Shown piece by piece: positions 1-43,500 of a stretch of DNA of 64,000 nucleotides. Each line of letters begins with the position of its first letter. Position 1 is the first letter of the stretch. The translations under genes and the position numbers were made by a program. Under the pieces are notes generated by a model. The model saw only the letters and a list, made by a program, of their open reading frames with translations, was not told where the DNA came from and did no database searches. The DNA lies in contig PHAN01000002.1 in the NCBI GenBank assembly GCA_002841695.1, positions 90,807 to 154,806 on the forward strand, written 5' to 3'. This DNA is from Elusimicrobia bacterium HGW-Elusimicrobia-1. Its GTDB lineage: Bacteria; Elusimicrobiota; Endomicrobiia; PHAN01.

Positions 1-4
1 GGCG

Positions 5-3000
5 GTGATAAATTCAGTGACGGTTTCAGCCGGCGACGCCTTGTGGCGCGATGCGATTTCCGACCAGAGATCCGATAATCACAGCTCCACGCAACTTGAT
101 ATTTCTTCCGTCGGAATATCCTGTGACGAGTACAATTTATACATGTTTGTCGCTTTCGCGTCAACCGTGGCGGCGAATTTTGACGGCAGAAATTTTATCC
201 AGATAATGCTCGACAACGGCCTCACTTCCACGGAAAGAGTGTTCAGGGGAAGAGGCGTCGGCTCGGAGGACAGTTATGTCTCCGGCGATACCGCGTGGGA
301 GTATCTGTGCGAAATCGTAACGGACAACGATGTTTTCCGTGTCGAAGACAGCCAATTCTCAAACAGAAATTTCGGCGGATACTCGGAGCACAACGACAAT
401 TATTTTTATGAAGTGGCGATGCCTCTTTCAAATCTCGGCGGTAAAGAAAGATTTCTCGGCAAAACCGTTAATTTTACCGTCGCGACATTCTGGAATGATA
501 ACGGAGTAGTAGGCCAGTGGGGCGCAGGTAGTTCAAATATAGTTGATGTCGTCACATCTTCGGGAACCAACACCTGGAACGAGGTTTCCGACAGGGTAGT
601 GGATTATTACATGGCCATAACGCTCTCGACGTCAGGCGCCATAACCGCGGTAAGCGGCGCGACGGCGAACAGTGTTCCTCCGATGACGGAGCCGCAGCCG
701 GACGCCTCGGCCCCTCCGTCGGCGTTGGATTATATGCTTTACAATATTTTCGTTGATGCCTGGCGCGACGGCGACCCCGCGAACAATAATCCCACGGACA
801 CAAACAGTTACGGCGGCGACTTTCAGGGCGTAATGGACAGCGCGGACTACTTTAACGAGATGGGAATAAATATGCTGTGGTTTGCCCCCGTGCATCAGTT
901 CGGCGGAGGAATCTGGGGTTACAACCTTGACGACGCCTATCAGTTTATGAGCAGGTTCGGCGGGAGAGATAAATATATTGAGATGGCGAAGAAGGTTAAA
1001 AATCGCAACTTAAAAACGATGCTCGACTGGGTTCCGGGACAGGTTGGCGGCAAGGATTCTCCGACGGGCAAAAAATATCCTAATTATTTCCAGGACGAAA
1101 TCTTCGGCTACGGATTAAGGCAGGAGTTCGCCGAGCCGAGGGCGTATATGGTCAATAACGCGGTCTGGTGGTCGTCATTTACCGACGGATTCAGATTCGA
1201 TAATCCAAAATTCTGGGACAATGGCGACGGCCCCGGCAGATACGAATTCTGCCGCGTTCTGCGGTTTGCCGTAGACAGATGGAACCCCGAACTCTACATG
1301 ATGGGCGAGATACCTGGCACCGTCGGTAATTTCAACGAATACACCGGCTCTCTGGGACCGATGATTCACGGGGCTATTGATATGGCGAGCGGCGGTTATA
1401 AAGACGCGTGGGACCACCATATATGCGCGTGGGCAAGGCCGGGAGACGCCCAATCGCGAACGACCATCGGCGTGCGTTCGGGTCTCGACGAGCAGCAAGT
1501 GACATGGAAAAATGACCTCTCGATAAATCCGGTGATGATGGAAAACCACGACGAAACCCGGCTTATTTCAAGATACAGGCCCGGCGGAGCAAATGGCGAG
1601 TGGCAGCAGCGGGTGGCTTATATGACGGCTTTTCTCGTCGGCGGGCCCGCGAAGATTTTCTACGGCGGCGAAGTCGGGCTTGAAGGCCCTTACGGCGGCG
1701 GCTCGTCGGAGAAGATGGACAGAAACGGCAACGTCCGCCAGATGCTGTTCAACCGCGCCAATGAGTGGCCGTGGATAGCCGTCAGAGACAGCATAAGAAG
1801 AACACTTCAGGCGAAAGCGAACTTCCCCGAACTCAGGGGCGACCCCAAAAAAGGCGGCCGCGGCTGGTATACGGGCGGACAGTATGACGACAACGTTCTT
1901 GTCGTTGCCCGCACATGGGCCAACCCCGACAGAAAATCAATCGTTATGATAAACCGCTCGGCGGGGAACGTCCAGATGAGCAGTGTGGGCACAGGCGATA
2001 ACAATACTGTCTATAAAGATTGGTTGACCGATAAAAATTTTACTACAAATGCAAGCGGCATTCTTCAGGATAATGATAATACGGACGGAGATGGTAACCT
2101 TAATACTTTTAATGTGGATTCGCATAACGGCAGAATTTTAATCAGGGGCGGATACGACTGGGTGAATATAACCGGTTCCGTCAAAGACGGGGCGGGAAAT
2201 CCTGTCCCGGGCGCGGTCGTTGATATTGACAGAAAAAGTCACTGGACGACGACTACCGACGCCGGCGGTAACTACTCGCTGTCGGGGGATTTAAGAAAAG
2301 TCCTGACGGGCAATCGCACAATACGCGTATGGGCAAACGGTTTCGGCATCGTAGATATCTCGACCAACATTGTGATAGCGGGCGGTGTAAACAGGACGCA
2401 AAATTTCACTCTGACTGCCGACAACGCGCCGCCCCAGCCGCCTACGAACCTGAGCGGTCGGCCCAGAAAAAATGCCGCTATGATTTTCTGGCAGCCGAAC
2501 ACGGAGGGGGACATCCAGTCGTATATCGTTTATAGAAGCACGGTTTCCATTGCCGCCGGCTCATTCCCCGCGCCGTTAGTCGAGATTTTTTCTCCGTATT
2601 ATTATGACAACAATTTTGACGGTCGGATAAATTCCGACGGAAAACACGTGGATCTTCTTGAAAACGGCGCCACATACTATTACCGTGTCCGCGCTGTTGA
2701 CAGGAGCGGGAACAAATCCGCGCTTTCAAATCAAATAGCGATCGTTCCAAGACCGATAAAAGCCACCTTCTGGGTTGATACTAGAGATAGCGGGCAGTCG
2801 GTCGCATCCGTGGATGTGGAGGGAGACGCTCTGGCATTCGGCGATACCAAACCTGAAAGGAACGTCCGGGGATGGACACAATTGTTTTCCAACGGCGATG
2901 GGACATTCCAGAGAACTTTTGATATGGATGATTCCGACTTTATAGAATACAAATACGTGATTACGACCTCCGGCGGAGGAAGGATAGGGGAGGGCGACGC

Positions 3001-6000
3001 GGGGCATTTGTTCAATGACCCCGCAGGGACCAATGGGGCGGAAAATCGCGGCGAGATTTATCTTGACGCCATACCCAATGTGGAAATCAGGGACGAAGGC
3101 GACGGAACGATGCTTTTGCCGAACGTTTGGCGGTGGTATCAGGACAGAGCGCCGAGAGCGCCGTCGGGGGTTGGGATTTCAGCCGGTCCAAACATTTTAA
3201 CAACCGGCTGGACAAAAAACGCCGAGCCGGATTTACAATATTATACCGTTCAACGTTCGACATGGAATTCGGGATTTTCGGGCGCGGTCGCATCGGTTAA
3301 CATCGGCAAGGACCAGATTAGTTATGTCGACACGAATCTGCTCAATGGCAACACTTATTACTACAGGATCAGGGCGATAGACAGAAGGGCGAATATCGGC
3401 GATTGGTCTTCAACCATTTGGGCATATCCTCGGGCGGCGGATACAACCGCGCCTGTATCGCCATCGGGGTTGGCCGCGTATGGTTCGGGAACAAATGGGC
3501 TTGGATCGGTTGAAGTAAGATGGAATGCAAATTATGAAGGCGATTTGGCGGGATATAATATTCACCGCTCGACGGAAAGCGAGTTTGCGCCCGTCGCCGC
3601 CAATAAGTTAAACATCGTTTTGATTTCGCCGTCGCAGGAACCGCTTTACACCGACAAAAACACAACAACCGGCACGCAGTACTATTACAAGATTGTTGCA
3701 ATTGACGACAGCGGCAACACCTCAAACCCTTCCGTTCAACTTTCCGTAAAAATCATTCCGGTGACATTTAATGTCGATATGGGAAATATCAATCCTTCAA
3801 ACGTTCAAATACTCGGGAACACAAAACCGCTCGATTGGAGCGGAACAAATAGTTTGACGTGTCCGGCGGCCAGTACCTACACGATTACACTCGGCTTTGT
3901 TTCGGGAACTACGCTCTGGTATCGCTACGCCTATAACTCGGCTTCCGTCGAGGAACAGCCGTTTGCGACGTCTTCCTCGCAATACCGCGAGTATGTAATC
4001 GGGTATTCCACCGCCGTCGTCAGTAATGACTGGGAGCAAAACCCCGATATGGTTTCAGGCGTCAAGGTTTACGGCGGCGTCAACAAAGCATATCTTTACT
4101 GGGACGCGAACACGACCGCAGAGGATATCGCTGGATATAACATCTATCGCTCCGAGCCGCCCTCGACTACGCCCACACTTAAATTAAATGCGGGGCCCAC
4201 GAGTTATATTCAACCCTATACCGTCACAGGACTGGACACCGGCTCTACATATTACTTTTCGGTAAAAGCGGTTGATTCGGGGAGTCAGGTTTTGGAAAGC
4301 ACCGCCGCCTCGGTCGTTCCTGTTTTCATATCTTCGAGAGTTTACGTCCATTTCGGAATCCCGTTTTCAGTCGGACAATCAAGCGCGCCGTGGGGCGATG
4401 CCGACAAAATAAAGATGTATCTGGCCGTGCACAACTCGACGGATACGGATCTTTCCGTCTGGAACACTTCCGAAAGAGCAAATGTTACTGACGGAAAAAT
4501 GGTGATGACGGCCTCCGGCGACGGAACATATCGCGCTATGGTTCCTTTGGCTGTCGGAAATCGCTACAATTTTACATTCTTCGCGCAGACGACAAACAAT
4601 CCTCCGTCGGGCTTGAACGGCAACACCGAATATTACGATACAGTCCCGGATACGGGGAGTTTTATAGTTTCCAATTCATCAACGGGTATTTCTCCTCCGG
4701 CGGGCGTATCGGCTGTTTTTGCGCCGTTCGGGATAACCCGCGACGCCAGGCGTGTTCTGGTTTTGCCCTCTGATATTGCGGCCGGCTCCACGATGTACGT
4801 CTTTGCGAACTTCGGCTCCTCACCCACCGCGCCGACTTATATACAGGCCGTCGGCGGAAATAATAAAGTTACCCTTTACTGGTCGGCGCCGTACGGTTCG
4901 CCGTGGACGTATCCGTCTCCTGAAAAAACCGGCAATGTCCCTCTGGGCGGCGGCGAGTCGATGAAAGCGGCCGATGTCGTTGCCGGCGGAGTGTACCACA
5001 TTTTCGTCACCACATATAACCACGGCTCGTTTAATTCTTATACCGCAACAGTCACGCTTTCGGGCGGAACGATGAACTATACGTTTACGGGGCTTCAAAA
5101 TGGCGTAACTTATTACTATCTTATGCGTTCATCCGATACTTTCAAGGGACTTGTGGGAAATAATTTCAGCGTTTTGTCGGCGACCGTAAGCGCTCAGCCC
5201 ACGTCGGCGGCGGTTCCCGTAAGTGTCAGAGTAAACCGCGGGGCGCATCCATTGTGGAAAGCGGTGAGAAAAACAATCGCTTTTCAGGAAGGCACAAGCG
5301 TTCCCGCATGGGACGCCGACGGGAAGTCAAATATCACGCTGACAGGTAAAGCGGTAAATATGGTCGCCCCCGCCGATGATGCAACCGAGCAGGAATTCTC
5401 GGCGAACCTCATTCCGGGCACCTCGTATAATTTCATACTTTTCGCATACTCCACTTTTTCTATTGCGGGGCTTGAAACAAACACCACTTATTTTGATACC
5501 GTGCCGAACTTCGGCGCCGGCGGAATGATAACATCGACCTCGACCATTTCTATAACAGGGCACGGCAAAGCGCTTTGCGGGCCGGCGGGGCCGGCTTCCG
5601 ACGCAAGACGGATTTTGTATGTTCCGACCGATTTACCGTCGGGCTCCACACTTTACGTCTACTGCAACTTCGCCTCCAGCCCGAGCGCGGTTTATCTAAG
5701 TGCGTCCGTCGTGAGCACGTTTTCCGTCCAACTCGAATGGACGCCTTACGGCGCATGGGGAACGAGCGGCGAAAGTTTGAAAGCCGCCGACGTCATAGCC
5801 GGCGGACATTATTATGTATGGCGTTCAAGCGTCAGTTCGGCGGGGCCGTGGAATCTCTGGGTTTCGACGTCGGCGAGAAACTGGATTGACGCGGATCTCA
5901 ACGCGCCGGGCGACGGGCTGGGGCTTGAAGCAGGGCGGACTTATTTTTATGTCGTCGTGTCGTCGGACTCATATAGCGGAAACTTTATACCCAATATGTA

Positions 6001-6298
6001 CCGCGCCGGCGCGCCGGAGTTTTCCTCGTCGGACGCATCCGTCACGCCGCGCGAAAAAGCGCCGGTCTATTTCAAAGTCGAAAATAATTTCTTCGACGAA
6101 AGATACGTCCGCGCGATAGAAATCGCCATACTGCGCCCTCACCCCGCCCCTCTCCCATCGAGGGAGAGGGAGTTTTTGCCGCATAGTTTCCTCTCCCCTT
6201 ATCAAAAGGGGGATGGCTGCAAATACCCCGTCAAACCTTCGGTTTGCCACCCCTTTAATAAAGGGGAATACAGCCGGGGTATTATTCCCCTCTTTTAG
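5..6298 (+). CDS. Giant secreted GH13-family alpha-amylase-like protein with long FN3 domain array (5' end lies upstream of window; last ~60 codons run into palindromic repeats)
   Basis: Uninterrupted 2097-codon ORF from window edge. GH13-like motifs: GGDFQGV...MGINMLWFAPV, GFRFD (region II), GEIPG (region III), MMENHDETR (region IV). Repeated FN3-type signatures YYYRVRAVDRSGNKS, YYYRIRAIDRRANIG, YYYKIVAIDDSGNTS. Confidence 0.8.
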   Translation: MINSVTVSAGDALWRDAISDQRSDNHSSTQLDISSVGISCDEYNLYMFVAFASTVAANFDGRNFIQIMLDNGLTSTERVFRGRGVGSEDSYVSGDTAWEYLCEIVTDNDVFRVEDSQFSNRNFGGYSEHNDNYFYEVAMPLSNLGGKERFLGKTVNFTVATFWNDNGVVGQWGAGSSNIVDVVTSSGTNTWNEVSDRVVDYYMAITLSTSGAITAVSGATANSVPPMTEPQPDASAPPSALDYMLYNIFVDAWRDGDPANNNPTDTNSYGGDFQGVMDSADYFNEMGINMLWFAPVHQFGGGIWGYNLDDAYQFMSRFGGRDKYIEMAKKVKNRNLKTMLDWVPGQVGGKDSPTGKKYPNYFQDEIFGYGLRQEFAEPRAYMVNNAVWWSSFTDGFRFDNPKFWDNGDGPGRYEFCRVLRFAVDRWNPELYMMGEIPGTVGNFNEYTGSLGPMIHGAIDMASGGYKDAWDHHICAWARPGDAQSRTTIGVRSGLDEQQVTWKNDLSINPVMMENHDETRLISRYRPGGANGEWQQRVAYMTAFLVGGPAKIFYGGEVGLEGPYGGGSSEKMDRNGNVRQMLFNRANEWPWIAVRDSIRRTLQAKANFPELRGDPKKGGRGWYTGGQYDDNVLVVARTWANPDRKSIVMINRSAGNVQMSSVGTGDNNTVYKDWLTDKNFTTNASGILQDNDNTDGDGNLNTFNVDSHNGRILIRGGYDWVNITGSVKDGAGNPVPGAVVDIDRKSHWTTTTDAGGNYSLSGDLRKVLTGNRTIRVWANGFGIVDISTNIVIAGGVNRTQNFTLTADNAPPQPPTNLSGRPRKNAAMIFWQPNTEGDIQSYIVYRSTVSIAAGSFPAPLVEIFSPYYYDNNFDGRINSDGKHVDLLENGATYYYRVRAVDRSGNKSALSNQIAIVPRPIKATFWVDTRDSGQSVASVDVEGDALAFGDTKPERNVRGWTQLFSNGDGTFQRTFDMDDSDFIEYKYVITTSGGGRIGEGDAGHLFNDPAGTNGAENRGEIYLDAIPNVEIRDEGDGTMLLPNVWRWYQDRAPRAPSGVGISAGPNILTTGWTKNAEPDLQYYTVQRSTWNSGFSGAVASVNIGKDQISYVDTNLLNGNTYYYRIRAIDRRANIGDWSSTIWAYPRAADTTAPVSPSGLAAYGSGTNGLGSVEVRWNANYEGDLAGYNIHRSTESEFAPVAANKLNIVLISPSQEPLYTDKNTTTGTQYYYKIVAIDDSGNTSNPSVQLSVKIIPVTFNVDMGNINPSNVQILGNTKPLDWSGTNSLTCPAASTYTITLGFVSGTTLWYRYAYNSASVEEQPFATSSSQYREYVIGYSTAVVSNDWEQNPDMVSGVKVYGGVNKAYLYWDANTTAEDIAGYNIYRSEPPSTTPTLKLNAGPTSYIQPYTVTGLDTGSTYYFSVKAVDSGSQVLESTAASVVPVFISSRVYVHFGIPFSVGQSSAPWGDADKIKMYLAVHNSTDTDLSVWNTSERANVTDGKMVMTASGDGTYRAMVPLAVGNRYNFTFFAQTTNNPPSGLNGNTEYYDTVPDTGSFIVSNSSTGISPPAGVSAVFAPFGITRDARRVLVLPSDIAAGSTMYVFANFGSSPTAPTYIQAVGGNNKVTLYWSAPYGSPWTYPSPEKTGNVPLGGGESMKAADVVAGGVYHIFVTTYNHGSFNSYTATVTLSGGTMNYTFTGLQNGVTYYYLMRSSDTFKGLVGNNFSVLSATVSAQPTSAAVPVSVRVNRGAHPLWKAVRKTIAFQEGTSVPAWDADGKSNITLTGKAVNMVAPADDATEQEFSANLIPGTSYNFILFAYSTFSIAGLETNTTYFDTVPNFGAGGMITSTSTISITGHGKALCGPAGPASDARRILYVPTDLPSGSTLYVYCNFASSPSAVYLSASVVSTFSVQLEWTPYGAWGTSGESLKAADVIAGGHYYVWRSSVSSAGPWNLWVSTSARNWIDADLNAPGDGLGLEAGRTYFYVVVSSDSYSGNFIPNMYRAGAPEFSSSDASVTPREKAPVYFKVENNFFDERYVRAIEIAILRPHPAPLPSREREFLPHSFLSPYQKGDGCKYPVKPSVCHPFNKGEYSRGIIPLF

Positions 6299-6370
6299 AG
6301 GGGTGTCCGAAGGACGAGGTGTTATTCCCCTTTTACAAAAGGGGTGTCCCGAAGGGACGGGGTATTTGAG
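6137..6370. repeat. Cluster of short CCCCTTT-N-AAAGGGG type hairpins (P1-related) overlapping the 3' end of the giant gene
   Basis: Successive inverted repeats: ccctctcccatcgagggagaggg, cacccctttaataaaggggaa, ttcccctcttttagaggggtg, ttccccttttacaaaaggggtg. Confidence 0.6.
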
Positions 6371-6447
6371 GGGTAAAATGATGGCGCGATTTTAACAGGA
6401 TATGTGATAAAAAAAGTCAAGGGTAAACCCTTGACTGGGAGGTAGTT

Positions 6448-7584
6448 ATGATGTACAGATTGTTTAGGTTGTTGTTGTGCGCCGCAATGGCCGCGTTAGT
6501 GGGCGCTTCGGCGCTTTTTGCGGCATCGGCCAACGCCCCTTGGGGCGACGCAGCGCAGATACAGGTCGGGGTGGTGATTCATCCGGGTGTCAGCGTCCCG
6601 GCGTGGCCGGAAGTCAACAAAAACGATATAACCGGAGACGCCACATCGTTCATCGTTGCGGGGAAAAGCGCGATGGAAGCCGTCGGAGACGGCACTTACC
6701 AGTTCAGAACCGACCTGGTACCCGGTGGCGTCTATAACTATATCTTTGGCGCCAGGATAATGCAGGGCGCATGGGGGTTCGATGCCGAAAAAGATTACGC
6801 CGAACCTATCCCCGACGGTTCCCAGCAGGACGACTCGGGCAATTACGCGACGAGCGATCCCGGCACTTTCGTATCGCTATCCTCGACGGCGTACTCGTCG
6901 ACGGGCGATGGCGGGGTGTCGTACGTCAATATCGTCGTCGACAACAATGGAAATTCAAGAAGAAAGTTAGATATGCCCACGGTTGATCCGGGCACGACCA
7001 TTTACGTCTTCAACAACTTCGGCTCGCTTCCGCGCGGAGTCGCGAATTACTCTGTGAAGATATCGTCCGGACGGGTGGATCTCAACTGGCAAGGCGCGCT
7101 GGGAACGTGGGGGTCGGGTATGCCTTCCGTCGACGCCCTCGGCGGGAGAAATCTGCTCTACGTCAGCACGTCCAACTCCGCGGGGCCTTACTCGCTTCTG
7201 GCGGATCTCGCCGGAACGGCCACGCATTACGCTCACTCGGGACTTGCCAACGGTACGTCGTATTATTTCATATTCGTCTCATCCGATCCCTACGGAGGTG
7301 TAACGCTGTCCACATACACTGCGTCGAAATCGCTTTGGGCGAATCTTTCGCGCGGCATACCGCCGACCGGCACGATGTGGAACTCCGGCGAATACGCGCA
7401 TAATGATAAATACGGCAAGCCGTCGGGCCCCGTTCCGGTCTATTTCAAAGTCGAAAATATCGACGAGAACTACGTCAGGGAGCACGGCGATCTCGTTTAT
7501 CTGACTCCGTGGCACGAGGACGGCAGATTATACCGACACAAGATTCAGGGCGTGTTTCTTTCCGCTTATCTGCCGAAGGGATGA
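6448..7584 (+). CDS. Secreted protein, paralogous to the C-terminal modules of the giant GH13 protein (unknown function)
   Basis: SD GGGAGG upstream of ATG; signal-peptide-like N-terminus MMYRLFRLLLCAAMAALVGASALFAASA; shared motifs GDGTYQF..YNYIFGA, TIYVFNNFGS, PVYFKVEN with gene 5..6298. Confidence 0.7.
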   Translation: MMYRLFRLLLCAAMAALVGASALFAASANAPWGDAAQIQVGVVIHPGVSVPAWPEVNKNDITGDATSFIVAGKSAMEAVGDGTYQFRTDLVPGGVYNYIFGARIMQGAWGFDAEKDYAEPIPDGSQQDDSGNYATSDPGTFVSLSSTAYSSTGDGGVSYVNIVVDNNGNSRRKLDMPTVDPGTTIYVFNNFGSLPRGVANYSVKISSGRVDLNWQGALGTWGSGMPSVDALGGRNLLYVSTSNSAGPYSLLADLAGTATHYAHSGLANGTSYYFIFVSSDPYGGVTLSTYTASKSLWANLSRGIPPTGTMWNSGEYAHNDKYGKPSGPVPVYFKVENIDENYVREHGDLVYLTPWHEDGRLYRHKIQGVFLSAYLPKG

Positions 7585-7635
7585 GGATAAAATATAGAAT
7601 TAAGTAACCGATACAAACGCGTTGGCACATTACGT

Positions 7636-7720
7636 AAAATCTCCCCTAACCCCTCTTTTTCAAAGAGGGGGAATAAGGGAACAATCCCCCTTTATTAAAG
7701 GGGGATAAAGGGGGATTTTT
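7636..7720. repeat. P1 palindromic element (AAATCCCCCT...CCCCCTTTnAAAGGGGG...AGGGGGATTT)
   Basis: Terminal inverted repeat aaaatctcccct / agggggatttt enclosing two internal hairpins; same family at 39948, 40383, 50775, 58173. Confidence 0.7.
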
Positions 7721-7751
7721 GAAATCGTCTCGTTTGTATTAAATTGCTGAT

Positions 7752-8849
7752 ATGAAAAAATCGAAGACGTTTCTATCGGTGGCTCTTTTAGTCGTCGCGT
7801 TTGCGTCGGCGGGTAGGATTTGCGCCCAACTCCCCGCCGGCGCGGGCGCGTTCGCGCAGTGGGGGAATTTCCAGAAAAAAATAGCCCTCCAGCGCGGCGT
7901 CGGCGTAAGCGCATGGGAAGACCGAGGCGACATAAGCTACGAGCAGTACGGGATGTATGCCGCGACGATGTCTCCCGTCGGAGACGGCACGTATCAGATA
8001 AAATTTGATTTGTATCCGGGCGCGGAATATAATTTCGCGTTCTTCGCCGTTTCGACGACGCCTTTGGCCGGCGTCACGACAGGTCTCACTTATTTCGACG
8101 CCGTTCCGAATCACGGCTCGGACGCGGCTTTCATCGCCTCGACCTCGCCCGCGGCGCCGCTTGCTTCCGATACGCGCTCGGCGGAATACAGGTCCATAGG
8201 CGGCGACGCCCGTCGATACGTCGCAATACCGGATCTCGCGCAGGGCACGACGTTTTACGTTTTCAGCAATTGGGCTTCGACCCCATCCGCCCCGACGGAC
8301 CTTCGCGCCCGGCCCGGCGACTCCAAGGTTCATCTTACATGGGGCGCGCCCTACGGCTGGTGGGGCACGGGCTCCCAACAATACAAAGCCATTGATGTAA
8401 TCGCGGGGGGAGCGTATGTTATTTACCGCTCGTCGGTGGCGGCGGGCGGCCCATACGAAATAGTGGCCTCGACTCCCGGACATTGTTTCTCATGGACGGA
8501 TACGAACGTTCAGAACGGAGTGCGATATTATTACGCCGTCTCGTCGAGCGACGCTTACAAAGGCGACGCCGAGGGGGTTCTCGGCGATGTCAATTTATGC
8601 TCGGACGCGGCGTCGTCACAGACGCCGGGAGCATCTCCGGGTCAGGCGGTTCCGATAAGATTCAGAGTCGAAGGCATCGACTGGAAGGTGATAAAAGAGA
8701 AGGGTTATCTCGCGTGGCTCACGCCGAACGCGGCTTCGGATGGGGCGCCGCCGTGCCCGCCCGCAAGAATCCCCGCGCGGCTCGTCGAAGTAAAACTTTC
8801 GAAAACATTGAAAGACAGAATAAGTGATGCGATTAGATGGTTGTTGTAG
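7752..8849 (+). CDS. Secreted protein of the same module family (unknown function)
   Basis: Signal peptide MKKSKTFLSVALLVVAFASAGRICAQ; motifs GDGTYQIKFDLYPGAEYNFAFFA, TYFDAVPNHG, TTFYVFSNWAS, PIRFRVEG shared with 6448..7584 and C-terminus of 5..6298. Confidence 0.7.
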   Translation: MKKSKTFLSVALLVVAFASAGRICAQLPAGAGAFAQWGNFQKKIALQRGVGVSAWEDRGDISYEQYGMYAATMSPVGDGTYQIKFDLYPGAEYNFAFFAVSTTPLAGVTTGLTYFDAVPNHGSDAAFIASTSPAAPLASDTRSAEYRSIGGDARRYVAIPDLAQGTTFYVFSNWASTPSAPTDLRARPGDSKVHLTWGAPYGWWGTGSQQYKAIDVIAGGAYVIYRSSVAAGGPYEIVASTPGHCFSWTDTNVQNGVRYYYAVSSSDAYKGDAEGVLGDVNLCSDAASSQTPGASPGQAVPIRFRVEGIDWKVIKEKGYLAWLTPNAASDGAPPCPPARIPARLVEVKLSKTLKDRISDAIRWLL

Positions 8850-8906
8850 TGTAGGGGGCTTTATGTTCGTAACAAATTTACGTATTTACGCCCTGTAGTG
8901 TAGGGG

Positions 8907-9080
8907 CTTGTCCCCGTAGGCAAAAGGACTTGTCCCCGTAGGCAAAAGGACTTGTCTCCGTAGGCAAAAGGACTTGTCTCCGTAGGCAAAAGGGCTTGTC
9001 CCCGTAGGCAAAAGGGCTTGTCCCCGTAGGCAAAAGGACTTGTCTCCGTAGACAAAAGGGCTTGTCCCCGTAGACAAAAA
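8907..9080. repeat. Tandem repeat, 8 copies of a 22-bp unit (cttgtccccgtaggcaaaagga), ending at the RAYT start codon
   Basis: Eight head-to-tail units with few substitutions, no spacers; first unit overlaps REP-like gtagtgtaggggcttgtcccc. Confidence 0.85.
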
Positions 9081-9538
9081 TGGAACCACCAAAAAAAATC
9101 CGGCTGGAAAAAGAACTATATTCACAACCCGGAAGAATATATTTTGTTACTGTTAATACAAATTTTAAAAAAGGTTTTTTTATAGAGGACAACTTTAATC
9201 GCGAAATTATACAGTGTTTATTGACGGAGAGAAATAACAGATATAGTATTTTCGTATATTGTTTGATGCCTGACCATATTCATTTTTTAATTTCAACAAA
9301 TGCTGAAAATTATTCAATTACTGATTTTGTGAATAGATTTAAAGGATTGACAACAAGAATTGGTTGGAAATACGGTGTTGAAAAAGTTCTATGGCAAAGA
9401 AGATTTTACGATCATATATTAAGAAAGCAAGAAGATGCTAAAAAAATTGCGGAGTATATAGTTAGCAATCCTGTAAGAAAAGGTTTGGTTAAAAATTGGA
9501 AAGAATATCCATATTGTGGGTATATAGATGAATTTTAA
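9080..9538 (+). CDS. REP-associated tyrosine transposase (IS200/IS605 TnpA-like, HUH Y1 family)
   Basis: 152 aa; HUH motif in CLMPDHIHFLIS; conserved C-terminal tyrosine region AEYIVSNPVRKGLV; codon usage AT-rich relative to neighbours. Confidence 0.8.
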   Translation: MEPPKKIRLEKELYSQPGRIYFVTVNTNFKKGFFIEDNFNREIIQCLLTERNNRYSIFVYCLMPDHIHFLISTNAENYSITDFVNRFKGLTTRIGWKYGVEKVLWQRRFYDHILRKQEDAKKIAEYIVSNPVRKGLVKNWKEYPYCGYIDEF

Positions 9539-12215
9539 ATTACGCCCGTGTAGTGTAGGGATTTATGCCCGTAACAAATTTGCGTATTTACGCCCACAAG
9601 GGGCTACATTGCATACGTATTTACGCCCGCAAGGGGCTACACTACTGTTATTATTTATTTGCAATTTGCTTTATGCTCTTGAAATCGGAACTCCTGCGGG
9701 TGAGACGGGCGGCTTTGCGACGCAGCAGAAACATTTTTACGGCGACTATCTTTCGTCGGGCTCGCCTTCGGACTCCGTTTGGAGTTCGTCGGCGGCGATG
9801 ACACGCGAGGCGCTCGCCGACGGCACGACGATATACTTCGCGGACATTCCGGTAACGGCGGGCAACACCTTTTACTACTATTTTAAAACTCAATCGTCGG
9901 GCGAGCAAAAAACGCCGGTATACAGAACTATCTACGTCAGCAGTTCGAATCCCGGCGAAATTATCGTCGACGGAACGGCGTATCCGGCGGCGGGTCTCGT
10001 TGCGGCGGCTACGGTCTGGCACAACTTCTCGGACGCTCCGCCGCCTCCGGCCAATCTCACTTCTTTCTGGTCAGCCGCCAACGACTTCGTATCTCTTGAA
10101 TGGGACAACCCGCTTTTCGACGGAACCGCTGTTTTCGATCTTACGGGCGGAGGCGGTTATGAGATATGGCGCTCAAGCGTATCGTTTTCCGACGGTATGG
10201 CCGTGATATCTTCCGTCACGGCGATTTTAAGCCGCATGAGTTTTCCTGATTCGTCCGTCGAGGCGGGCGCGACTTATTATTACCGCGTCCGCGCCTACGA
10301 CGCGTATCTTCCGCCAATGCTTTCGTCTCCCGCGCAAACTTCGCCCGCATCGAAAAGAAATTACGTCACGGTTGCCCTCGAGGTCGACGTATTCGCGCTA
10401 TCGGGAGTAACCGGGGTTTCCGTTATCGGAGATTTCACCTCGCCGCCGTTTTACAAAGGCCGTCTGAGTATGGATTACGCCGGCGGCGGCAAATGGCGGC
10501 TCGAACACGCCGACGCTTCGCTTTACTCCGGAGCGCTCATCAAATACAAATATCTCGTCAACGGCGAACTTTATGAACCCGATCTGCCGCCTGCGCTCGG
10601 AGGGCCGTACAGAAATGTCGCGATAAAGGATGAGGGTTCGCGCAGAATGACTATTAAAGACGTCTGGTCGGTCTGGACTCCGACGGGAACGCCGTCGAAC
10701 CTGCCGCGGTTTATGACGGCTTTTTCCGCCGAGCCGTCCGCCGGCGCCGTCAAAATCACATGGGACTGCGACCCCTTTTCGACGGGCACTCTTCTGGGTT
10801 ACGCACTTGAGCGCTCGTCGTTCGCCGCCGGCGGTTATTCCGTAATATCTTCGCCGGATATCCTGGGCCCCGCGACATTCTACTACTCGGACGTCCTCGC
10901 CGACGGCTCGACGGCTTTCTACAGGATCGCCGCCGTATCCTCGTCGGGACAATGGTCGGAGTTCTCCGATGCCGTAAAGGCCAATCCTCCGTCCGTCGGG
11001 GAATCTCTGCCGCGATACAATCCCGCCGCCCAAGAGGTTTTCGCGGCGGGCGATTTTATTTGCGATATCGGTAATCTGACGGGTGAAGTCATACTTGCGT
11101 GGAATGCCGCGTCTCATGACGCGGCCTACGGCGCGGCGAGCGCATACATTGTCAAATACGCGACATTCCCGATAATCGGCGCCGATTCTTTTCATCGCGC
11201 AAAGACCGCCGGCGCGGCGCGCGGTTTGCCGTTGGGCGCGACGGGGCGTCTGACGACTTTGAACCTCGGCGGGGACTGCCCGGGTTTTTACTTTGCGGTC
11301 TGCGCGGTCTACGGCTCGTGGCACGTCGTGGGATTTTCAACTTCCGTCGTGGCGGTAGCCCCCAAGGCCTTCGACGCCAAGGATGGCGGCCTCGTCGTCA
11401 AAACGTTGCGTTTCGCGGGATCCTCGCCGGAGGCGCCGAGCGTGGCGGCGATGGAGTTTCCGCCGGGTGCGCTTCAACAGGGCGAATATCTCGGAGTCAT
11501 AAAAAATCTCGGGGAATTACGGCTCGACGGATCGGTCGCGGCCAAGATAGACGCGGCCAATTCACTCGCCTCGCGTGATGCCAGATTCGGCTATGTCGCG
11601 GATAACGAGAACCTTGCGTCGTCGAGCGTTTTCGCTTTCGATCTTTACGATTCGGCGAAAAACGATTACTTTAATCCCGTCGCCGGCAGAAGAGCGCGCA
11701 AAGACATAGTCGTCTCGCTGTCTTACGCAGGGCTGTCCATTGTGCCGGAGGAGTTGAAAGTCGCGCGCCTCAACGAAAAAAACGATTTCTGGCGGATACT
11801 GAAAGATATCAAACCCGATATAGACCGCGACGCCAAGCTCATAAAGTTCAAAACTAAGGAACTCTCGGTCTACGCACTCTTTCGCGCGCCGGCTCCCGCC
11901 GCCGATCTTTCGAACGTAGCGGTTTATCCGAACCCCTTCAAGCCGCACGACGGCTTACGCGAAACGGGCGACTATTCGACGGGAATCAGATTCACCAACC
12001 TCACACGGAACGCGGATATCAGGATTTATAATATAGCCGGCGAATTGGTCAGATACAAAGGGCTTGAAGCCGACGAGATCGGAGAGTGCCGCTGGGACGC
12101 CATGAACGACGACGGTGAACGCGTCGCAAGCGGCGTTTACATTTTCATTGCGAAAGATGAAAGCGTCAAGGTCGGCAAAAACCATTTCACAGGAAAAGTG
12201 GGAATTGTAAGATAA
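9528..12215 (+). CDS. Large FN3-containing surface protein with C-terminal FlgD-Ig/T9SS-like sorting domain (start codon uncertain; N-terminus encoded by REP sequence)
   Basis: 895-aa ORF; FN3 signature ATYYYRVRAYD; C-terminus AVYPNPFKP...IRIYNIAGELVRY...WDAMNDDGERVASGVYIFIAKD...GKVGIVR. Confidence 0.7.
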   Translation: MNFKLRPCSVGIYARNKFAYLRPQGATLHTYLRPQGATLLLLFICNLLYALEIGTPAGETGGFATQQKHFYGDYLSSGSPSDSVWSSSAAMTREALADGTTIYFADIPVTAGNTFYYYFKTQSSGEQKTPVYRTIYVSSSNPGEIIVDGTAYPAAGLVAAATVWHNFSDAPPPPANLTSFWSAANDFVSLEWDNPLFDGTAVFDLTGGGGYEIWRSSVSFSDGMAVISSVTAILSRMSFPDSSVEAGATYYYRVRAYDAYLPPMLSSPAQTSPASKRNYVTVALEVDVFALSGVTGVSVIGDFTSPPFYKGRLSMDYAGGGKWRLEHADASLYSGALIKYKYLVNGELYEPDLPPALGGPYRNVAIKDEGSRRMTIKDVWSVWTPTGTPSNLPRFMTAFSAEPSAGAVKITWDCDPFSTGTLLGYALERSSFAAGGYSVISSPDILGPATFYYSDVLADGSTAFYRIAAVSSSGQWSEFSDAVKANPPSVGESLPRYNPAAQEVFAAGDFICDIGNLTGEVILAWNAASHDAAYGAASAYIVKYATFPIIGADSFHRAKTAGAARGLPLGATGRLTTLNLGGDCPGFYFAVCAVYGSWHVVGFSTSVVAVAPKAFDAKDGGLVVKTLRFAGSSPEAPSVAAMEFPPGALQQGEYLGVIKNLGELRLDGSVAAKIDAANSLASRDARFGYVADNENLASSSVFAFDLYDSAKNDYFNPVAGRRARKDIVVSLSYAGLSIVPEELKVARLNEKNDFWRILKDIKPDIDRDAKLIKFKTKELSVYALFRAPAPAADLSNVAVYPNPFKPHDGLRETGDYSTGIRFTNLTRNADIRIYNIAGELVRYKGLEADEIGECRWDAMNDDGERVASGVYIFIAKDESVKVGKNHFTGKVGIVR

Positions 12216-12257
12216 AGTGGTCAGTGGATAGTGGTTAGTAAATAAAACGGATAATAT

Positions 12258-13250
12258 ATGAGAAAATTGTGTCTTTCGACTAGTGTTTCGACGGCAACTC
12301 GCGGACGAGGACGGCCCCTGCGACGGATTGCCCTTGTCCTTGCCTTTACTATCCACTATACACTGACCACTAACCACTCTCTACACGCCGCCGGCACGAC
12401 ATCCGCGACTTTTCTTAAACTCGGTGTCGGGGCGAGACCGGTGGGGATGGCCTCGGCGTTCGCAGGCGTGGCCGACGACGTCAACTCCGTCGCATGGAAC
12501 CCTGCGGGGCTCGCCTCAGTCGACGCGAAAGAATTTTCGTTTATGCATCTTGAACATTTTCAGGACGTGCGCTACGATTCGCTGTGCTATGCTCATCCTA
12601 TGAAAAAAACGGTCGTCGCATTCGGCTTTGGCTATCTGTATACCGACGAGATAACAAGGACTTTCATAGACGACGATGTTTATGCGGGTTTTCGCGCGCA
12701 GGGAGATTACCGGCTCCAGGATAGGACGTTTTTTGTTGCGGCGGCAAGACGAATCTCCGATGATAAGGCCGTCGGAGCGCTCGTCAGGTGGCTTTCGGAG
12801 AGGATAGAAGATAATGAAGCGACGGGGCTCGCCGCCGACGTCGGATATCTTCATCTCGTGACGGACCGTCTCGCGTTCGGTTTGTCCGTCCAGAATATCG
12901 GCGGGACGATAAGATTCATCGCGGCCGACGAAATGCTGCCGCTGACTTTTCGCGCGGGCTTCGGATATGACGTTGTCGCCGGAAAACTCAAACTCGCGCT
13001 CGACTTCGTCAAGCCCGTCGACTATCAACTTTCGATCAATCTCGGCGCCGAGTACAGGGCGTTTGACGCGCTCGCCGTCAGAGGCGGATGGAGCTTCAAA
13101 GATTTGTTCTACGACGACCGGCTTAACGGAACATCCGGCGCGGCTCTGGGGATGGGGTTTTCTTTTCACAATTATTCTCTTGACTACGCTTTCGCGCCTT
13201 ATGGAGAGCTCGGTTATTCTCACAGAATATCGTTCGGGGGAAAGTTTTGA
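12258..13250 (+). CDS. Beta-barrel outer-membrane protein, PorV/PorQ- or PorP/SprF-like
   Basis: N-terminal motif LKLGVGARPVGMASAFAGVADDVNSVAWNPAGLA; alternating beta-strand-like pattern; C-terminal ...ISFGGKF (terminal Phe). Confidence 0.6.
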   Translation: MRKLCLSTSVSTATRGRGRPLRRIALVLAFTIHYTLTTNHSLHAAGTTSATFLKLGVGARPVGMASAFAGVADDVNSVAWNPAGLASVDAKEFSFMHLEHFQDVRYDSLCYAHPMKKTVVAFGFGYLYTDEITRTFIDDDVYAGFRAQGDYRLQDRTFFVAAARRISDDKAVGALVRWLSERIEDNEATGLAADVGYLHLVTDRLAFGLSVQNIGGTIRFIAADEMLPLTFRAGFGYDVVAGKLKLALDFVKPVDYQLSINLGAEYRAFDALAVRGGWSFKDLFYDDRLNGTSGAALGMGFSFHNYSLDYAFAPYGELGYSHRISFGGKF

Positions 13251-15437: not shown

Positions 15438-15620
15438 TTGAGTCAATTGAAAAACCCTTATCACGTCATTCCCGCGAAAGCGGGAATCCAGAGTTTCAGT
15501 CGTAGTATGGATTCGTCCCCGAATGTCTTTATCGGGGATAACAACATTCGGGAATGACCCCCGATAAAAACGTTCGAGGGCAGGCATACGGGAAAAAGGT
15601 TGGTTTTTCAATTGACTCAA
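15438..15620. mobile_element. MITE-like element with terminal inverted repeats and nested internal palindrome
   Basis: TIRs ttgagtcaattgaaaaacc / ggtttttcaattgactcaa; internal gtcattcccgcgaaagcgggaatcc ... cgggaatgac. Confidence 0.7.
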
Positions 15621-32487: not shown

Positions 32488-32618
32488 GAGACCGTTGAAA
32501 AAGTATTTTTTACTATTTTGTCATTCCCGAACGTTTTAATCGGGAATCCATTACTGACGGAAACTCTGGATTCCCGCTTTCGCGGGAATGACATAATTAA
32601 GGGTTTTTCAACAATCTC
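32488..32618. mobile_element. MITE-like element, same TIR family, with internal gtcattcccg...cgggaatgac palindrome
   Basis: gagaccgttgaaaaag ... tgtcattcccgaacg...cgcgggaatgacat ... tttttcaacaatctc. Confidence 0.65.
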
Positions 32619-39092: not shown

Positions 39093-39230
39093 CAATGCTC
39101 TCGCCCGCCGTTTTTCGTCGCCCCCTATCCCACAAAAACCTTGACTTTTCGCCGCGAATCTGCTATAAATACCGTATTAAACGCGAAGTGTGATGTTCGA
39201 TTGATGTTTTGCTGCGATATGTGTAGCGGC

Positions 39231-39288
39231 GGGATTGCTATCCCGCAATTATGGCGCATAGCAATGCGCCCGCTACATAATCATACAT
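39231..39288. repeat. Palindromic intergenic element P6
   Basis: tgtagcggcgggattgctatcccgcaa...ggcgcatagcaatgcgcccgctaca. Confidence 0.7.
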
Positions 39289-39924: not shown

Positions 39925-39947
39925 TTTTTTTAAGACGTATCCGTAAG

Positions 39948-40027
39948 AAATACCTCCCCCTTTGGAAAAGGAGGATTGAGGGGGAAATCGGCCTCCCCCT
40001 TTTTAAAGGGGGAAAGAGGGGGATTTT
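39948..40027. repeat. P1 palindromic element
   Basis: aaatacctcccccttttggaaaaggaggattgagggggaaatcggcctccccctttttaaagggggaaagagggggatttt. Confidence 0.7.
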
Positions 40028-40033
40028 AATTTT

Positions 40034-40383
40034 ATGATTTTGCCATACAGTCCCAAGTTAAAATCATATTCAAGAGAATTAAGAAAGAATATGACGGATG
40101 CCGAGAAAAAAATATGGGGAAAACTCCGACGGAAGCAATTAAAGAAATGTCAATTTTACAGACAAAGAGTGATAGGTGAATATATAGTGGATTTTTTTGT
40201 TCCTCCGCCAAATTGGTCATCGAAATCGATGGCGGCCAACACTATACGAAAGATGGTATGGGCAGAGATAAGATCCGTGATGATTACATTAAAAATCTCG
40301 GTGTCAAGATATTAAGATTTACGGACAGAGAAGTTTTACAAAATATTGATTTAGTGGTTGGGCAAATATATGAAAATTTGTAA
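40034..40383 (+). pseudogene. DUF559-family endonuclease-like gene disrupted by a frameshift in a T7 homopolymer (or a homopolymer sequencing error)
   Basis: N-terminal LRKNMTDAEKKIWGKLRRKQL...FYRQRVIGEYIVDFF in frame 1; shifting +1 after the T run gives CSSAKLVIEIDGGQHY...GVKILRFTDREVLQNIDLVVGQIYENL ending at 40383; AT-rich. Confidence 0.7.
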
Positions 40384-40462
40384 AAATCCCCCTGTGTCCC
40401 CCTTTAAAAAAGGGGGATTAAGACATTTCGTCGAGCTCCCCTTTTAAAAAGGGGGAATAGAA
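40383..40462. repeat. P1 palindromic element
   Basis: aaaaatccccctgtgtccccctttaaaaaagggggattaag...gctccccttttaaaaagggggaat. Confidence 0.7.
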
Positions 40463-40564
40463 AGCCGCACCCCAAAGATTCTTGTGATTAACGACGAGAC
40501 GGAAGCACGGAAGATTAAGAAGATATTATTCTGATAGGAACGAACAGTCGGTAACTTTGGGTTA

Positions 40565-43500
40565 ATGATGGTTAAACGGATTTTTGCCGCTATCGGAGTT
40601 TGGTTTTTTTTGACGCTTTGCGTTCTGCGCCCCGCCTTTGCCACAACCAATAATACGATAACCATAGACGCCGCCCTCGCCGACTGGCAAAGCAATGAGG
40701 CGCTCGGCACTTCTTTCGGGCAATTTTATTTCACATGGGATGCGAGCAATTTTTATTTTGCTTATAATCGCGGCGGAACTTTTACCGCTGACCCGGATGT
40801 TGTCTGGATTTATATCAGCACAGTAGCGCCAACATCTACCGCCGGAACTTTTACTTCGGTTGATTGGACTGGCACCCATACACTTCCCTTCCGTGCAGGA
40901 TACGTCTATTTATTCAGGCCCAATGCCGAGTATAAAACCTACAGAAATTGGACCGGCTCGGCTTGGTCGGGAGATTGGGCGGGGAGCGCAACTACAAGCC
41001 AGAATTATGGCAGTGGTATAGTAGAGATAAAAATACCCAGAGCAGATATCGGCAACCCTTCTTCAATCAGGGTTACCATGTATATCACTAACGGGTCAAA
41101 TAACTATGTTTTTGGAACTACCCCGAGGGAAAATCCCAATGGCGCGACGGGAAGGTTGATGGGTTTGTCTTGGTATTATCCTAATTGCTCATCCACGGGA
41201 GTGTTCCCGAATTTAATTAGGTACAGATATCCGGGGGTTGTTATTGCTGATGTGTCGCCAAATGCAGGCGCGGCCGGGAATGATTATGTCACACTGTATA
41301 ATCCAAATGACGAGGCATTATATTTAAGTAACCTGCAATCGCATCATGGTTTGCCGACCGGATTAGTGTTGCGCTTTAGAACATATAACGGAGCAACGGG
41401 AACAAATAAAACACTGACTGTGGTTTCTACAAATACGATCTCCTCGCGAGGATTTTCGTTACTCGCATCCGGGACACCGCCGAAAACCGCCGATATAACT
41501 TTTGCTGCTGGGCTGGATACCTCAGATGACGGGGTGGTGATAGCGTATTCCAATACGACAACATTTGGCACCGACACATGGACATTGACCGATCTTTTTG
41601 GATGGGGGGGGCAAACAGTCGCCCTTGAAGGTAGCGCTCCCGCCAATCCTGGCACCGCCGATAGTTTTCAAAGAAAAGCATGGTCAACAACCGCAAGTTC
41701 CGCATCCATGCGTCTTGATGGCGAGGACACATACGCGGGGCATTTCATGGATACACACAACAACTCAAGCGATTTTGTGACCCTGATAAGTTCGTACATT
41801 TCAAATAATAGTTCGGATCCCCGCGAAGGATTCCTCGGCCAGTGCTGGCACATACCGGACAACACCTCCGATTTGGGCGGCATATCAATGCGCAACCCCC
41901 TGACGTATATTTATTTAAACACGCCCACAACTTTTTATGTAGGCAATTATTTTCAAGGAACCGGAAACCCGGGCGATATGTCGGGCGGGACGCTTTATTA
42001 TAAGGCAAAAACGGAACCATCATGGAGTTCCGTTTCTTTTGCCTATGATTCAACATCCGGCAACAATAAATACTGGCGTGCTCTCCTGAATAATTCTTAT
42101 ACAGCGGGGACAACCGTTCAATATTATATCAGCGTAGCATACGCGGACAGCCACGACACCACTCTTCTGTATTACAGCGGCGGACAAAGCAGAAGATGTT
42201 ACGAAACATACATTGCCACGAATACGCCTTCCGAGTTTATTGTTCAGGCGGACGCCGCGCCGGATCCCATAACGCCTACGCTGTCGCGGGCAGATGAGAT
42301 GGGAGCGAAAATTTACGTTACATGGGCAGCCCAGGGCGGGATGGACGGCTACAAAATCTATCGCTCATCCGTATCCGCGATAACGAACGGCAATAGGGGC
42401 GACGCAAGCCACCCCCTCGACGGAACGGCTACGCCGAGCGCCGCGGAATCGTACACTACGTCCGCCCTATTGCCCAATACCACTTACTGGTTCGCCGTAT
42501 GCGCCTATAAAGACGCCGTCGAGGGCGACGTCGGTTCGGCGGTTGCCATACGCACCGCCAGAATCTCGATAGACGGTTCCGCCTCCGACTGGGCGACCTC
42601 CGTGGAGTCGCCGTGGGTCAATGAATCAACGACCACGCTTGCATCCGGCTCCGGCACAGTTCCTTATTACGAATGGTCGTGGCGCGACAAGGCGTGGGAG
42701 CAAAGAACCGATTCCGCTCAGGACGACCGCAATTTCGACCTCAGGAATTTCCGCGTAGCCGCCGACGAGGAATACATTTATTTTTATACGAAATACGACA
42801 ACATCACCGATAAGGATTTTTATCATTTTGCGGTCGCCATAGACACGGGCGGCGCGACGGGATTAAATTGGCTCGGCGACGATTCCAACTCCGACACGAA
42901 CGGCGGCACCGCTATGGGCCTCGGCGGCGAATACGTCGGGGCGCTCAAAGCGGCGGCCATACTGGCTTTCCGCTACATTTCCACAGCCGGCACGGATTTC
43001 AGGATACATATGTACAAAAACGGCGGTTCCGGATGGGACACGCCCGCGCTCACCGGAGCCGGAAACACTGCCTGCTGGCTTACCACCGGCGACGGCGGAT
43101 GGATGGAAGCCAAAGTCCGCCGCTCCGACATAGGCGCCGCCGGAATCAAAACCCTGAAATTCTCCGCCGCGGTTTTCGAGAATCTGTTGGGACTCATAGG
43201 CGACGTGGACTCGACCAAATACTACGCCCCCGACGCACTCGACGCGATGTCCATAGCGCGTATTTCCGCCGCTTCGACCTACAACGATTCGCAGTGGGGT
43301 ATGAACTCCTGGGACGAGGACATATCCGATTCCGACGCGGATTTCTGGGCGCAGGCGCAGATAGACGCCTCGGGCCTCAAAATTAACCAACCTCCATCCG
43401 CGCCGTCTCTTTCGCTTCCCGCCGATGGCGCGGGTGTCGATATATCCACGCCGGCTTTTTCGTGGAGCGACAACGGCGACCCCGATTCTGGCGACGCAGT

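Follow-up and report, generated by a model that had tools for sequence, protein, structure and literature searches.

We analysed a 64,000-nt stretch of DNA, hereafter the window, from Elusimicrobia bacterium HGW-Elusimicrobia-1 (contig PHAN01000002.1, positions 90,807 to 154,806, forward strand). At its 5′ edge lies the larger part of a giant gene for a multidomain protein with a glycoside hydrolase family 13 (GH13) catalytic domain, followed by two small paralogues of the protein's C-terminal modules. Overall, we consider it likely that the protein is an active enzyme of a divergent GH13 clade, and that a cluster of hairpin repeats was recently inserted at the 3′ junction of its gene, where it encodes a tolerated tail. 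The open reading frame (ORF) is open to the 5′ edge of the window, is listed as 5..6298 on the plus strand (2097 aa) and ends with the stop codon TAG at 6296-6298. The initial annotation had given the gene a span of 5-6370, but the gene stops at 6298, and 6137-6370 is the hairpin cluster. The features of the gene up to its C-terminal modules are as follows.

2..6298, plus strand: giant GH13 multidomain ORF, the C-terminal 2098 aa of a protein of ~2700 aa, whose 5′ end lies ~2.6 kb upstream of the window
674..2161, plus strand: GH13 catalytic region (aa 225-720), a barrel with a short domain B and a C-terminal beta domain, placed by Pfam, PDB searches and the orthologue profile
1022..1042, plus strand: region I, LDWVPGQ (aa 341-347), with Asp342 retained, Asn replaced by Gly346 and His by Gln347 (CAG, nt 1040-1042)
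1187..1213, plus strand: region II, GFRFDNPKF (aa 396-404), with Arg398 and the nucleophile Asp400 (nt 1199-1201) retained and the terminal His replaced by Phe404
1298..1318, plus strand: region III, MMGEIPG (aa 433-439), with the acid/base Glu436 retained
1535..1558, plus strand: region IV, MMENHDET (aa 512-519), with His516 and the transition-state Asp517 retained
2168..2416, plus strand: CarboxypepD_reg-like beta-sandwich domain (Pfam)
4334..6082, plus strand: two tandem modules (aa 1445-1744 and 1745-2027), each a beta-sandwich plus Fn3, homologous to the two downstream paralogues

The catalytic region matches the alpha-amylase domain PF00128 of Pfam (E 1.4e-22, 81 bits against a cutoff of 22) and, at E<=1e-3, 148-166 GH13 chains of the PDB (phmmer/hmmsearch), the best of which, with E ~1e-23, are 5a2a/5a2b/4e2o and 8jnx. 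Besides the catalytic domain profile, it has the Asp/Glu/Asp triad, the region II Arg and the region IV His of GH13; the D.V.NH signature of region I is absent, and DWVPGQ stands in its place. Scores against the NCBIfam GH13 equivalogs were all far under their cutoffs (for example, 50.8 bits vs 799), and coverage was limited to aa ~246-351. For aa 1-226 of the giant, no Pfam or NCBIfam match was found. On the 3′ side of the CarboxypepD_reg-like domain, Fn3 domains alternate with CBM-like modules, and Pfam gives a weak CBM20 match at aa 920-999. The product is probably a very large, secreted and cell-surface-associated enzyme that acts on starch-like alpha-glucans.

According to the initial annotation, the catalytic Asp/Glu/Asp appear to be present (in GFRFD, GEIPG and ENHD), and the conserved histidines of regions I and II seem to be replaced. 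Both statements hold. The triad is intact (D400, E436 and D517), and alignment with PDB chains places Gln and Phe at the His positions, with no shift. In the phmmer alignments, LDWVPGQ pairs with LDFVVNH of the Anoxybacillus amylase (5A2A/5A2B) and with YDFVPNH of 8JNX, and DGFRFDNPK pairs with DGYRLDTVK. Few GH13 positions are as conserved as the region I His, which is nevertheless not one of the strictly invariant catalytic residues (PMC11239784). The loss of the region II His says little, because this residue is also missing in 6 of the 12 ordinary GH13 sequences that we aligned. Compared with classical amylases, the substitutions may mean an altered substrate or product specificity.

The substitutions are shared by a whole clade. 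A word-indexed search of 5.8 billion proteins found ten orthologues of 2494-2888 aa with 53-87% identity, covering 83-97% of the query; the uncovered part is its last ~60 residues. The closest relative in the genome collection is a metagenome-assembled genome (MAG) of Endomicrobiia, two orthologues are annotated as 'MAG: alpha-amylase family glycosyl hydrolase [Elusimicrobiota bacterium]', and one member of the 90% cluster of orthologue P0002 is labelled Omnitrophota. The motifs DWV[PC]GQ, R[FY]DNPKFW, EIP and E[NS]HDE are present in 11/11 orthologues. We then ran a profile of the catalytic domain through an exhaustive HMMER search of 1.84 billion cluster representatives (clusters at 50% identity), which returned 5214 GH13-like matches, 16 of them at E<=1e-30. 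Below the orthologues stands a second tier, made up of giant proteins of 1657-4409 aa whose matches (116-284 bits) span the whole profile and which come from MAGs labelled Hydrogenedentota or just 'bacterium'. Eleven of these (P0012-P0020, P0022 and P0026) have the Gln motif, and their motifs read DW[VI][PC]GQ (DLVPGQ in P0026), R.DN[PT]KF[WY], GE[IVQ]P and ENHD. Region I has Gly-Gln in all 22+ clade members, and its Asp is kept throughout; profile matches under ~100 bits are ordinary GH13 proteins carrying D.V.NH. A sister group of giant GH13 proteins (P0021, P0023 and P0025) has neither His nor Gln in region I, which reads DWPGTA[IV]G, and has R.DYAKF in region II; one cluster member in this group is labelled Altiarchaeales, possibly through a binning artefact.

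To gauge selection, dN/dS was calculated pairwise against the 87% orthologue by the Nei-Gojobori method, with the gene split into five segments. The whole gene gave 0.153, and the GH13 domain, with 0.098, ranked lowest of the five segments. Given this lowest value and the clade-wide invariance of the motifs, the His substitutions are an old clade signature under purifying selection and not decay. The reduced activity that the initial annotation had offered as one possibility finds no support. It is improbable that the domain is a dead pseudo-enzyme that only binds glucan and lost its histidines through relaxed constraint. In favour of this view, two residues with a part in transition-state stabilisation in classical amylases are missing here, and the NCBIfam and PDB profiles match well over the first third of the barrel only. 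However, about 25 sequences, down to ~30% identity, all keep the nucleophile Asp, the acid/base Glu, the transition-state Asp, the region II Arg and the region IV His, and relaxed constraint is at odds with a GH13 domain that has the lowest dN/dS in the gene. Moreover, GH70 enzymes with Gln at this position are fully active (PMC5388325), and the region II His is absent from many active GH13 enzymes. With its full catalytic machinery kept by purifying selection, the domain most likely has activity. We conclude that these proteins, so far annotated in generic terms only, form a deep, divergent GH13 clade, probably active, that carries one GH70-like active-site residue.

By sequence, the nearest known enzymes are the alpha-amylases of the Anoxybacillus/Geobacillus ASKA/GTA/BaqA type (5A2A, 5A2B and 4E2O), and the next nearest are cyclomaltodextrinase/neopullulanase-type enzymes (1EA9, 1SMA and 1J0H) and 8JNX. 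With GH13 amylases the domain shares the PF00128 barrel, the canonical region order I-II-III-IV, the triad, the region II Arg, the region IV His and the GGDFQG motif. In the window copy there is also a Trp-Trp pair between regions V and II (AVWWSSF), as has been described for the BaqA group (PMC5347038). The domain differs from GH13 amylases in the end of region I (Gly-Gln vs Asn-His), the end of region II (Lys-Phe-Trp), a very short domain B, a weak profile match past region I, and its position inside a multidomain protein of 2.6-4.4 kaa (thousand amino acids).

Gln at motif I separates GH70 from GH13, with ADWVPDQ in glucansucrases and VD.VPNQ in the non-permuted GtfC/GtfD (PMC5388325). Gln347 is thus GH70-like, DWVPGQ is close to the glucansucrase ADWVPDQ (PMC5388325), and the domain order is non-permuted, like that of the GtfC/GtfD 4,6-alpha-glucanotransferases. 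However, the GH70 profile PF02324 had no match at E<=0.01 in the giant ORF, no GH70 chain was within the best 60 PDB matches, and the GH70 motifs II (DAxDN/H), III (HLxxxE) and IV (HDQ/HDS) are not matched, region IV being the GH13-type ENHD. The GH70 trait that is present is the motif I Gln. The Gln-type clade could be an undescribed GH13 subfamily with GH70-like chemistry at subsite -1, that is, a group of surface transglycosylases. We judged this possibility jointly with a second novel reading, independent of it, which concerns the repeats and is set out below, and regard the two together as unlikely. The bacterial branching enzyme GlgB (GH13_9) has DWVPGH in region I, which would differ from DWVPGQ by His to Gln alone; we take this as a lead only. 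GlgB families gave weak NCBIfam matches at aa 246-349 (E 5e-7 to 8e-6, 25-29 bits vs cutoffs of 464-741), and unlike GlgB the giant protein has no CBM48 and no GlgB architecture, and its remaining regions are dissimilar.

For the 3′ end of the gene, we made two- and three-way DNA alignments of the window with the contig of the 87% orthologue (L001) and with an Endomicrobiia relative (L002). Coordinates marked L010 refer to the source contig. The features at this end are listed below.

6062..6127, plus strand: native C-terminus, the conserved strand PVYFKVE plus NNFFDERYVRAIEI, holding the last codons that are still collinear with relatives
6125..6298, plus strand: 57 non-homologous codons, A2042-F2098, read from the hairpin cluster
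6126..6389, no strand assigned: lineage-specific segment of ~264 nt, absent in L001 and L002 by DNA alignment, which holds the hairpin cluster 6137-6370
6324..6366, no strand assigned: 43-nt double-hairpin unit TTATTCCCCTTTTACAAAAGGGGTGTCCCGAAGGGACGGGGTA, 100% identical, inverted, to the 3′ flank of an upstream DUF559 ORF (L010 1293-1335), 8 kb away

DNA collinearity with L001 and L002 ends at window ~6125 (...GATAGAAATCG) and returns from ~6386 with a conserved hairpin, the ribosome-binding site (RBS) and the start of the next gene; the unrelated nucleotides between the collinear parts number ~264 in the window, ~45 in L001 and ~120 in L002. After ...PVYFKVENNFFDERYVRAIEI the ORF continues with AILRPHPAPLPSREREF...IIPLF*, and the new stop, TAG 6296-6298, lies in the loop/3′ arm of the hairpin 6287-6303. 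The L001 protein ends with ...YVLAIKMETGIK, and the window protein reads ...YVRAIEI and then AILRPHPAPL...IIPLF; from this comparison, ~5 native codons and the stop were replaced and 57 codons were appended. The strand P[VTL]YF[KR]V is present in all orthologue C-termini, and the 8-30 residues after it are mutually unrelated (49 in L002 and 71 in the window copy). A second short strand, FFDERYV.AI.I, comes after PVYFKVE in the window, L001, L002, P0004 and P0012, and the hairpin cluster starts directly after it, within the naturally hypervariable tail.

These comparisons bear out the earlier proposal that the hairpin cluster encodes the tail, and no orthologue has the same C-terminal sequence. 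The companion proposal, that the cluster replaced the native C-terminus, stands only for the few overwritten codons and the stop: no PVYFKVEN...YLTPW end was lost. We rejected the idea of a YLTPW segment removed by the insertion, since YLTPW is absent from every giant orthologue. In the mechanism that we propose, the repeat cluster would have landed recently where the giant gene meets the next gene, a junction that is hypervariable. The insertion would have overwritten about five terminal codons and the stop, and translation is predicted to run 57 codons into the repeats, to stop within a hairpin. The appended predicted peptide is most likely a by-product that is tolerated, not a functional substitute, because it lies past the last conserved strands, in a tail whose length and sequence vary naturally.

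Misassembly is a well-known consequence of short palindromic repeats, but it is extremely improbable that the junction at 6100-6400 is an assembly chimera or a collapsed repeat. The ENA contig ERZ27239240 k141_31467 is 100% identical to the window, and the JGI contig 3300029821 Ga0246092_1000468 is identical to window 3448-9862, with the same gene end called. Since the independent JGI assembly has an identical junction, the junction is not an artefact. Two assemblies of different sources are base-for-base identical throughout the region, six contigs carry the identical neighbouring (downstream) gene, and synteny with L001 and L002 is intact on both flanks. The insertion is genuine, recent and strain-level. 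The junction between the giant gene and the next gene appears to be a hot spot. At the locus of P0005, a 57%-identical orthologue (L058 8860-9010, GCA_900174565.1), a 29-nt repeat, GTAGCGCGGGAGTTCATCTGGCGCAA, occupies the same gene-end junction; it is unrelated to the window hairpins, is present in three direct copies and one inverted copy, and encodes the P0005 tail CSAGVHLAQKNKKSSAGVYLAQ* and its stop.

It is very unlikely that the hairpin-encoded tail has been recruited as an anchoring or regulatory peptide, or that the hairpins serve as a stabiliser or translational brake for the very long mRNA. Hairpins of the repetitive extragenic palindromic (REP) type are known both to be targeted by 3′ exonucleases and to act as barriers to them (PMC12320835). 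The RNA is predicted to fold very stably (-152.3 kcal/mol for 6120-6445, z = -8.1 vs shuffles), and the stop codon lies within a hairpin, all of which would suit such a role. However, the tail is confined to this strain, and the closest relatives manage without it. Its sequence merely translates CCCC/TTTT/AAAA/GGGG palindromes into PF.KG motifs, which recur where ORFs read through other hairpin copies.

The cluster is built of short hairpins with G/C caps; perfect stems occur in it at 6148-6170, 6250-6266, 6287-6303 and 6327-6344, and a degenerate copy of the 43-nt unit lies at 6283-6318. In the window, the pattern CCCCYYTN{1,8}ARRGGGG matches at 12 distinct sites, where 0.02 would be expected, and hairpin clusters are found at 6137-6370, 7640-7715, 39960-40030, 40383-40460, 50780-50860 and 58175-58265, the five besides 6137-6370 being intergenic. 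A scan of metagenome sequences for the double-hairpin unit found 46 loci. Overlap with long ORFs at 24 of the 46 was rejected as uninformative, since it concerned mostly ORF 5′ ends and stop-to-stop artefacts. As expected of elements like REPs or miniature inverted-repeat transposable elements (MITEs), the palindromes are dispersed beyond chance and show presence/absence polymorphism at the orthologous junction, where L001 and L002 lack them. No target-site duplication is evident at 6126/6389, and Rfam has no family anywhere in the window.

In several respects these repeats resemble the REPs and bacterial interspersed mosaic elements (BIMEs) of enterobacteria, the Rickettsia palindromic elements (RPEs) and other MITEs. 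They are short imperfect palindromes in clusters of 2-7, with many dispersed copies that are mainly intergenic, and they have a lineage-specific presence, with some copies read within ORFs. RPEs also invade coding sequence, and in R. felis 85 of 728 lie within ORFs (PMC1166351); unlike the in-frame RPE insertions, the element here lengthens an ORF end. It further differs from REPs and RPEs in forming its own sequence family, with a CCCCTTT..AAAGGGG hairpin and a GTCCCG..CGGGAC hairpin, and in that the unit family tested is tied to DUF559 genes, whereas repeats of other kinds flank the REP-associated tyrosine transposase (RAYT) gene of the window. Intergenic copies of a further hairpin family, distinct from the first and of the form ATTCCCGC-N3-9-GCGGGAAT and relatives, are scattered over the window (15468-15487, 32523-32589, 52288-52306 and 39229-39246), so the genome holds several REP-like families.

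The other end of the giant gene has been altered as well. The gene call in the source contig is 2968 aa long and includes an N-terminal DUF559 domain (PF04480; DUF559 region at L010 895-1700). This call is a read-through, because the upstream DUF559 ORF enters the giant frame without an intervening stop. The DUF559 ORF of ~115 codons, together with hairpins, makes up ~700 nt that are absent from L001 and that occupy the place of its ATG and signal-peptide start; L001 has a classical signal peptide, MKRFFFLSTLLPFCFSACLYA followed by DIPV. Immediately 3′ of the DUF559 ORF, the copy of the 43-nt unit is inverted relative to window 6324-6366, and similar units in direct orientation lie immediately 5′ of the ORF and 170 nt downstream.

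The giant gene might be a young pseudogene in this strain, with its start and stop clipped by repeats and its product no longer properly expressed or exported; we consider this unlikely. The insertion of DUF559 and hairpins took the ATG and the signal-peptide n-region that L001 retained, the stop was replaced by the hairpin cluster, and an insertion of a RAYT and tandem repeats disturbs the start of a neighbouring gene. However, about 2700 codons are open, with no frameshift or stop, and the identical allele occurs in at least two independent samples. In addition, an in-frame GTG at L010 1479 is a possible replacement start that would yield a plausible predicted signal peptide, VSRFIGTGYFISLYFHISIFLLLPAGSLHA. 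The pairwise dN/dS is uninformative on the time since the insertions.

Against the reading of an active enzyme of a divergent clade with a recent, tolerated insertion at its 3′ junction stand the following points. Replacement of the native ATG and n-region by DUF559 and hairpins could mean that inactivation is under way, in a frame that is open over 8.9 kb. The AlphaFold2 model of the catalytic domain, built from an alignment of 11 sequences, reached a pLDDT of 41.8 and is unusable. The placement of Gln347 at subsite -1, where the region I His of GH13 contacts the sugar, is one that we infer from alignment alone.

Among the 46 unit loci, five have a DUF559 homologue, in all five cases within 0-385 nt of a unit, and none was found elsewhere in 307 kb. 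With five of 46 loci carrying the gene, most units are solo REP/MITE-like elements and a minority flank DUF559 genes. We speculate that the double-hairpin units may be more than passive REPs and could form the inverted ends of a small mobile cassette that carries a DUF559 nuclease (Vsr-like, PD-(D/E)XK) as cargo, a 'REPtron-like' arrangement in which the nuclease replaces the RAYT. The layout could be unit, DUF559 and inverted unit, and gene-less derivatives could spread as arrays, repeatedly rewriting the starts and stops of neighbouring genes. This is the second of the two novel readings that we judged jointly, and it shares the doubt expressed for the GH13 subfamily. If it is true, this is how the giant GH13 gene came to be rewritten at both ends. 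Our literature search on DUF559 found no paper tying it to palindromic repeats, within the literature searchable. The window has a second DUF559 copy at 40034-40383, whose frame appears to shift within a poly-T run. Hairpins of a sister subfamily, ...AGGGGGATTTT / AAAATCCCCCT... (39940-40480), lie on either side of this copy, which is directly upstream of another giant ORF (40565-47803, 2412 aa, Fn3/Kelch-like).

Downstream of the junction lie a conserved hairpin and the two paralogues.

6415..6436, plus strand: hairpin AGTCAAGGG-TAAA-CCCTTGACT, just 5′ of the RBS/Shine-Dalgarno sequence of paralogue 1, conserved in L001 (~9146-9167) and L002 (~3755-3775)
6448..7584, plus strand: paralogue 1, 378 aa, with a signal peptide, a beta-sandwich, Fn3, a disordered linker and a conserved C-terminal segment of ~50 aa, PVYFKVEN...VYLTPW...
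7752..8849, plus strand: paralogue 2, 365 aa, with the same architecture as paralogue 1

The hairpin has a compensatory G-C to A-T change in L002 and is without a U-tract. Placed between the giant gene and the paralogues, it may serve in processing, stability or translational control. The paralogues match the two C-terminal modules of the giant in BLASTP (E 2e-22 and 9e-40) and have no Pfam or NCBIfam match; the AlphaFold model of a paralogue has a pLDDT of 78.6. Their PVYFKVEN...YLTPW ends, noted in the initial annotation, were verified by translation (...PVYFKVENIDENYVREHGDLVYLTPWHEDG... in 6448-7584 and ...PIRFRVEGIDWKVIKEKGYLAWLTPN... in 7752-8849). Across 24 homologues, the paralogue family has a conserved end of ~50 aa, PVYFKVEN-ID..YV....VYLTPW.EDGR.Y..K.PG, of which the giants retain PVYFKVE plus a short second strand only; the YLTPW part is the small paralogues' own. 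A P-V-Y-F-K-V-type strand stands at the end of every module and of both paralogues, and the mature paralogues start just past the position that holds such a strand in the internal modules of the giant. This strand might complete the beta-sandwich to which it belongs, or act as a donor strand that links the giant, paralogue 1 and paralogue 2.

Further downstream are genes for an 868-aa protein with a C-terminal domain of the type IX secretion system (T9SS) type, a PorV/PorQ-family protein, an Fn3 protein, two GGDEF proteins and a sugar-type ABC transporter. The PorV/PorQ-family outer-membrane protein matches NF033709 (149.5 bits against a cutoff of 90). The 868-aa protein, whose gene adjoins it, is PorZ/PorU-like across its last ~100 aa (E 1e-14, below cutoff). 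The two, at 9690-13250, are a PorZ/PorQ-like pair in an Elusimicrobiota-type genome. We infer that the neighbourhood would fit a surface-exposed polysaccharide-processing apparatus. Between paralogue 2 and these genes lies an IS200-like Y1 transposase/RAYT gene (9080-9538; Y1_Tnp E 6.6e-11, GC 33%), preceded by ~8 tandem 22-nt repeats (8895-9075) and with near-identical flanks 'ttacgccc(t)gtagtgtagggg'. The whole segment 8850-9560 is absent from L001, and it gives the ORF 9528-12215 a spurious repeat-encoded N-terminus (YLRPQGATL x2). The RAYT as mobiliser of the hairpins is unsupported, since the sequences at its flanks, the 22-nt repeat and 'ttacgccc(t)gtagtgtagggg', differ from them.

Both the active-site and the 3′-end features are variants of known phenomena; what is modestly new is the clade-wide GH70-like Gln and a DUF559-linked hairpin family that rewrote both ends of this gene. 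For genome annotation, the locus is a clean and independently reproduced case of small palindromic repeats making chimeric gene ends. Gene callers and surveys of domain architecture would misread both the 57-aa C-terminal extension and the 250-aa false N-terminal DUF559 'domain'. For the classification of carbohydrate enzymes, these proteins form a coherent, deep GH13 clade confined to uncultivated phyla. With a GH70 residue in a non-permuted GH13 scaffold, the clade would offer a natural test case for what this position controls, be it hydrolysis versus transfer or linkage type.

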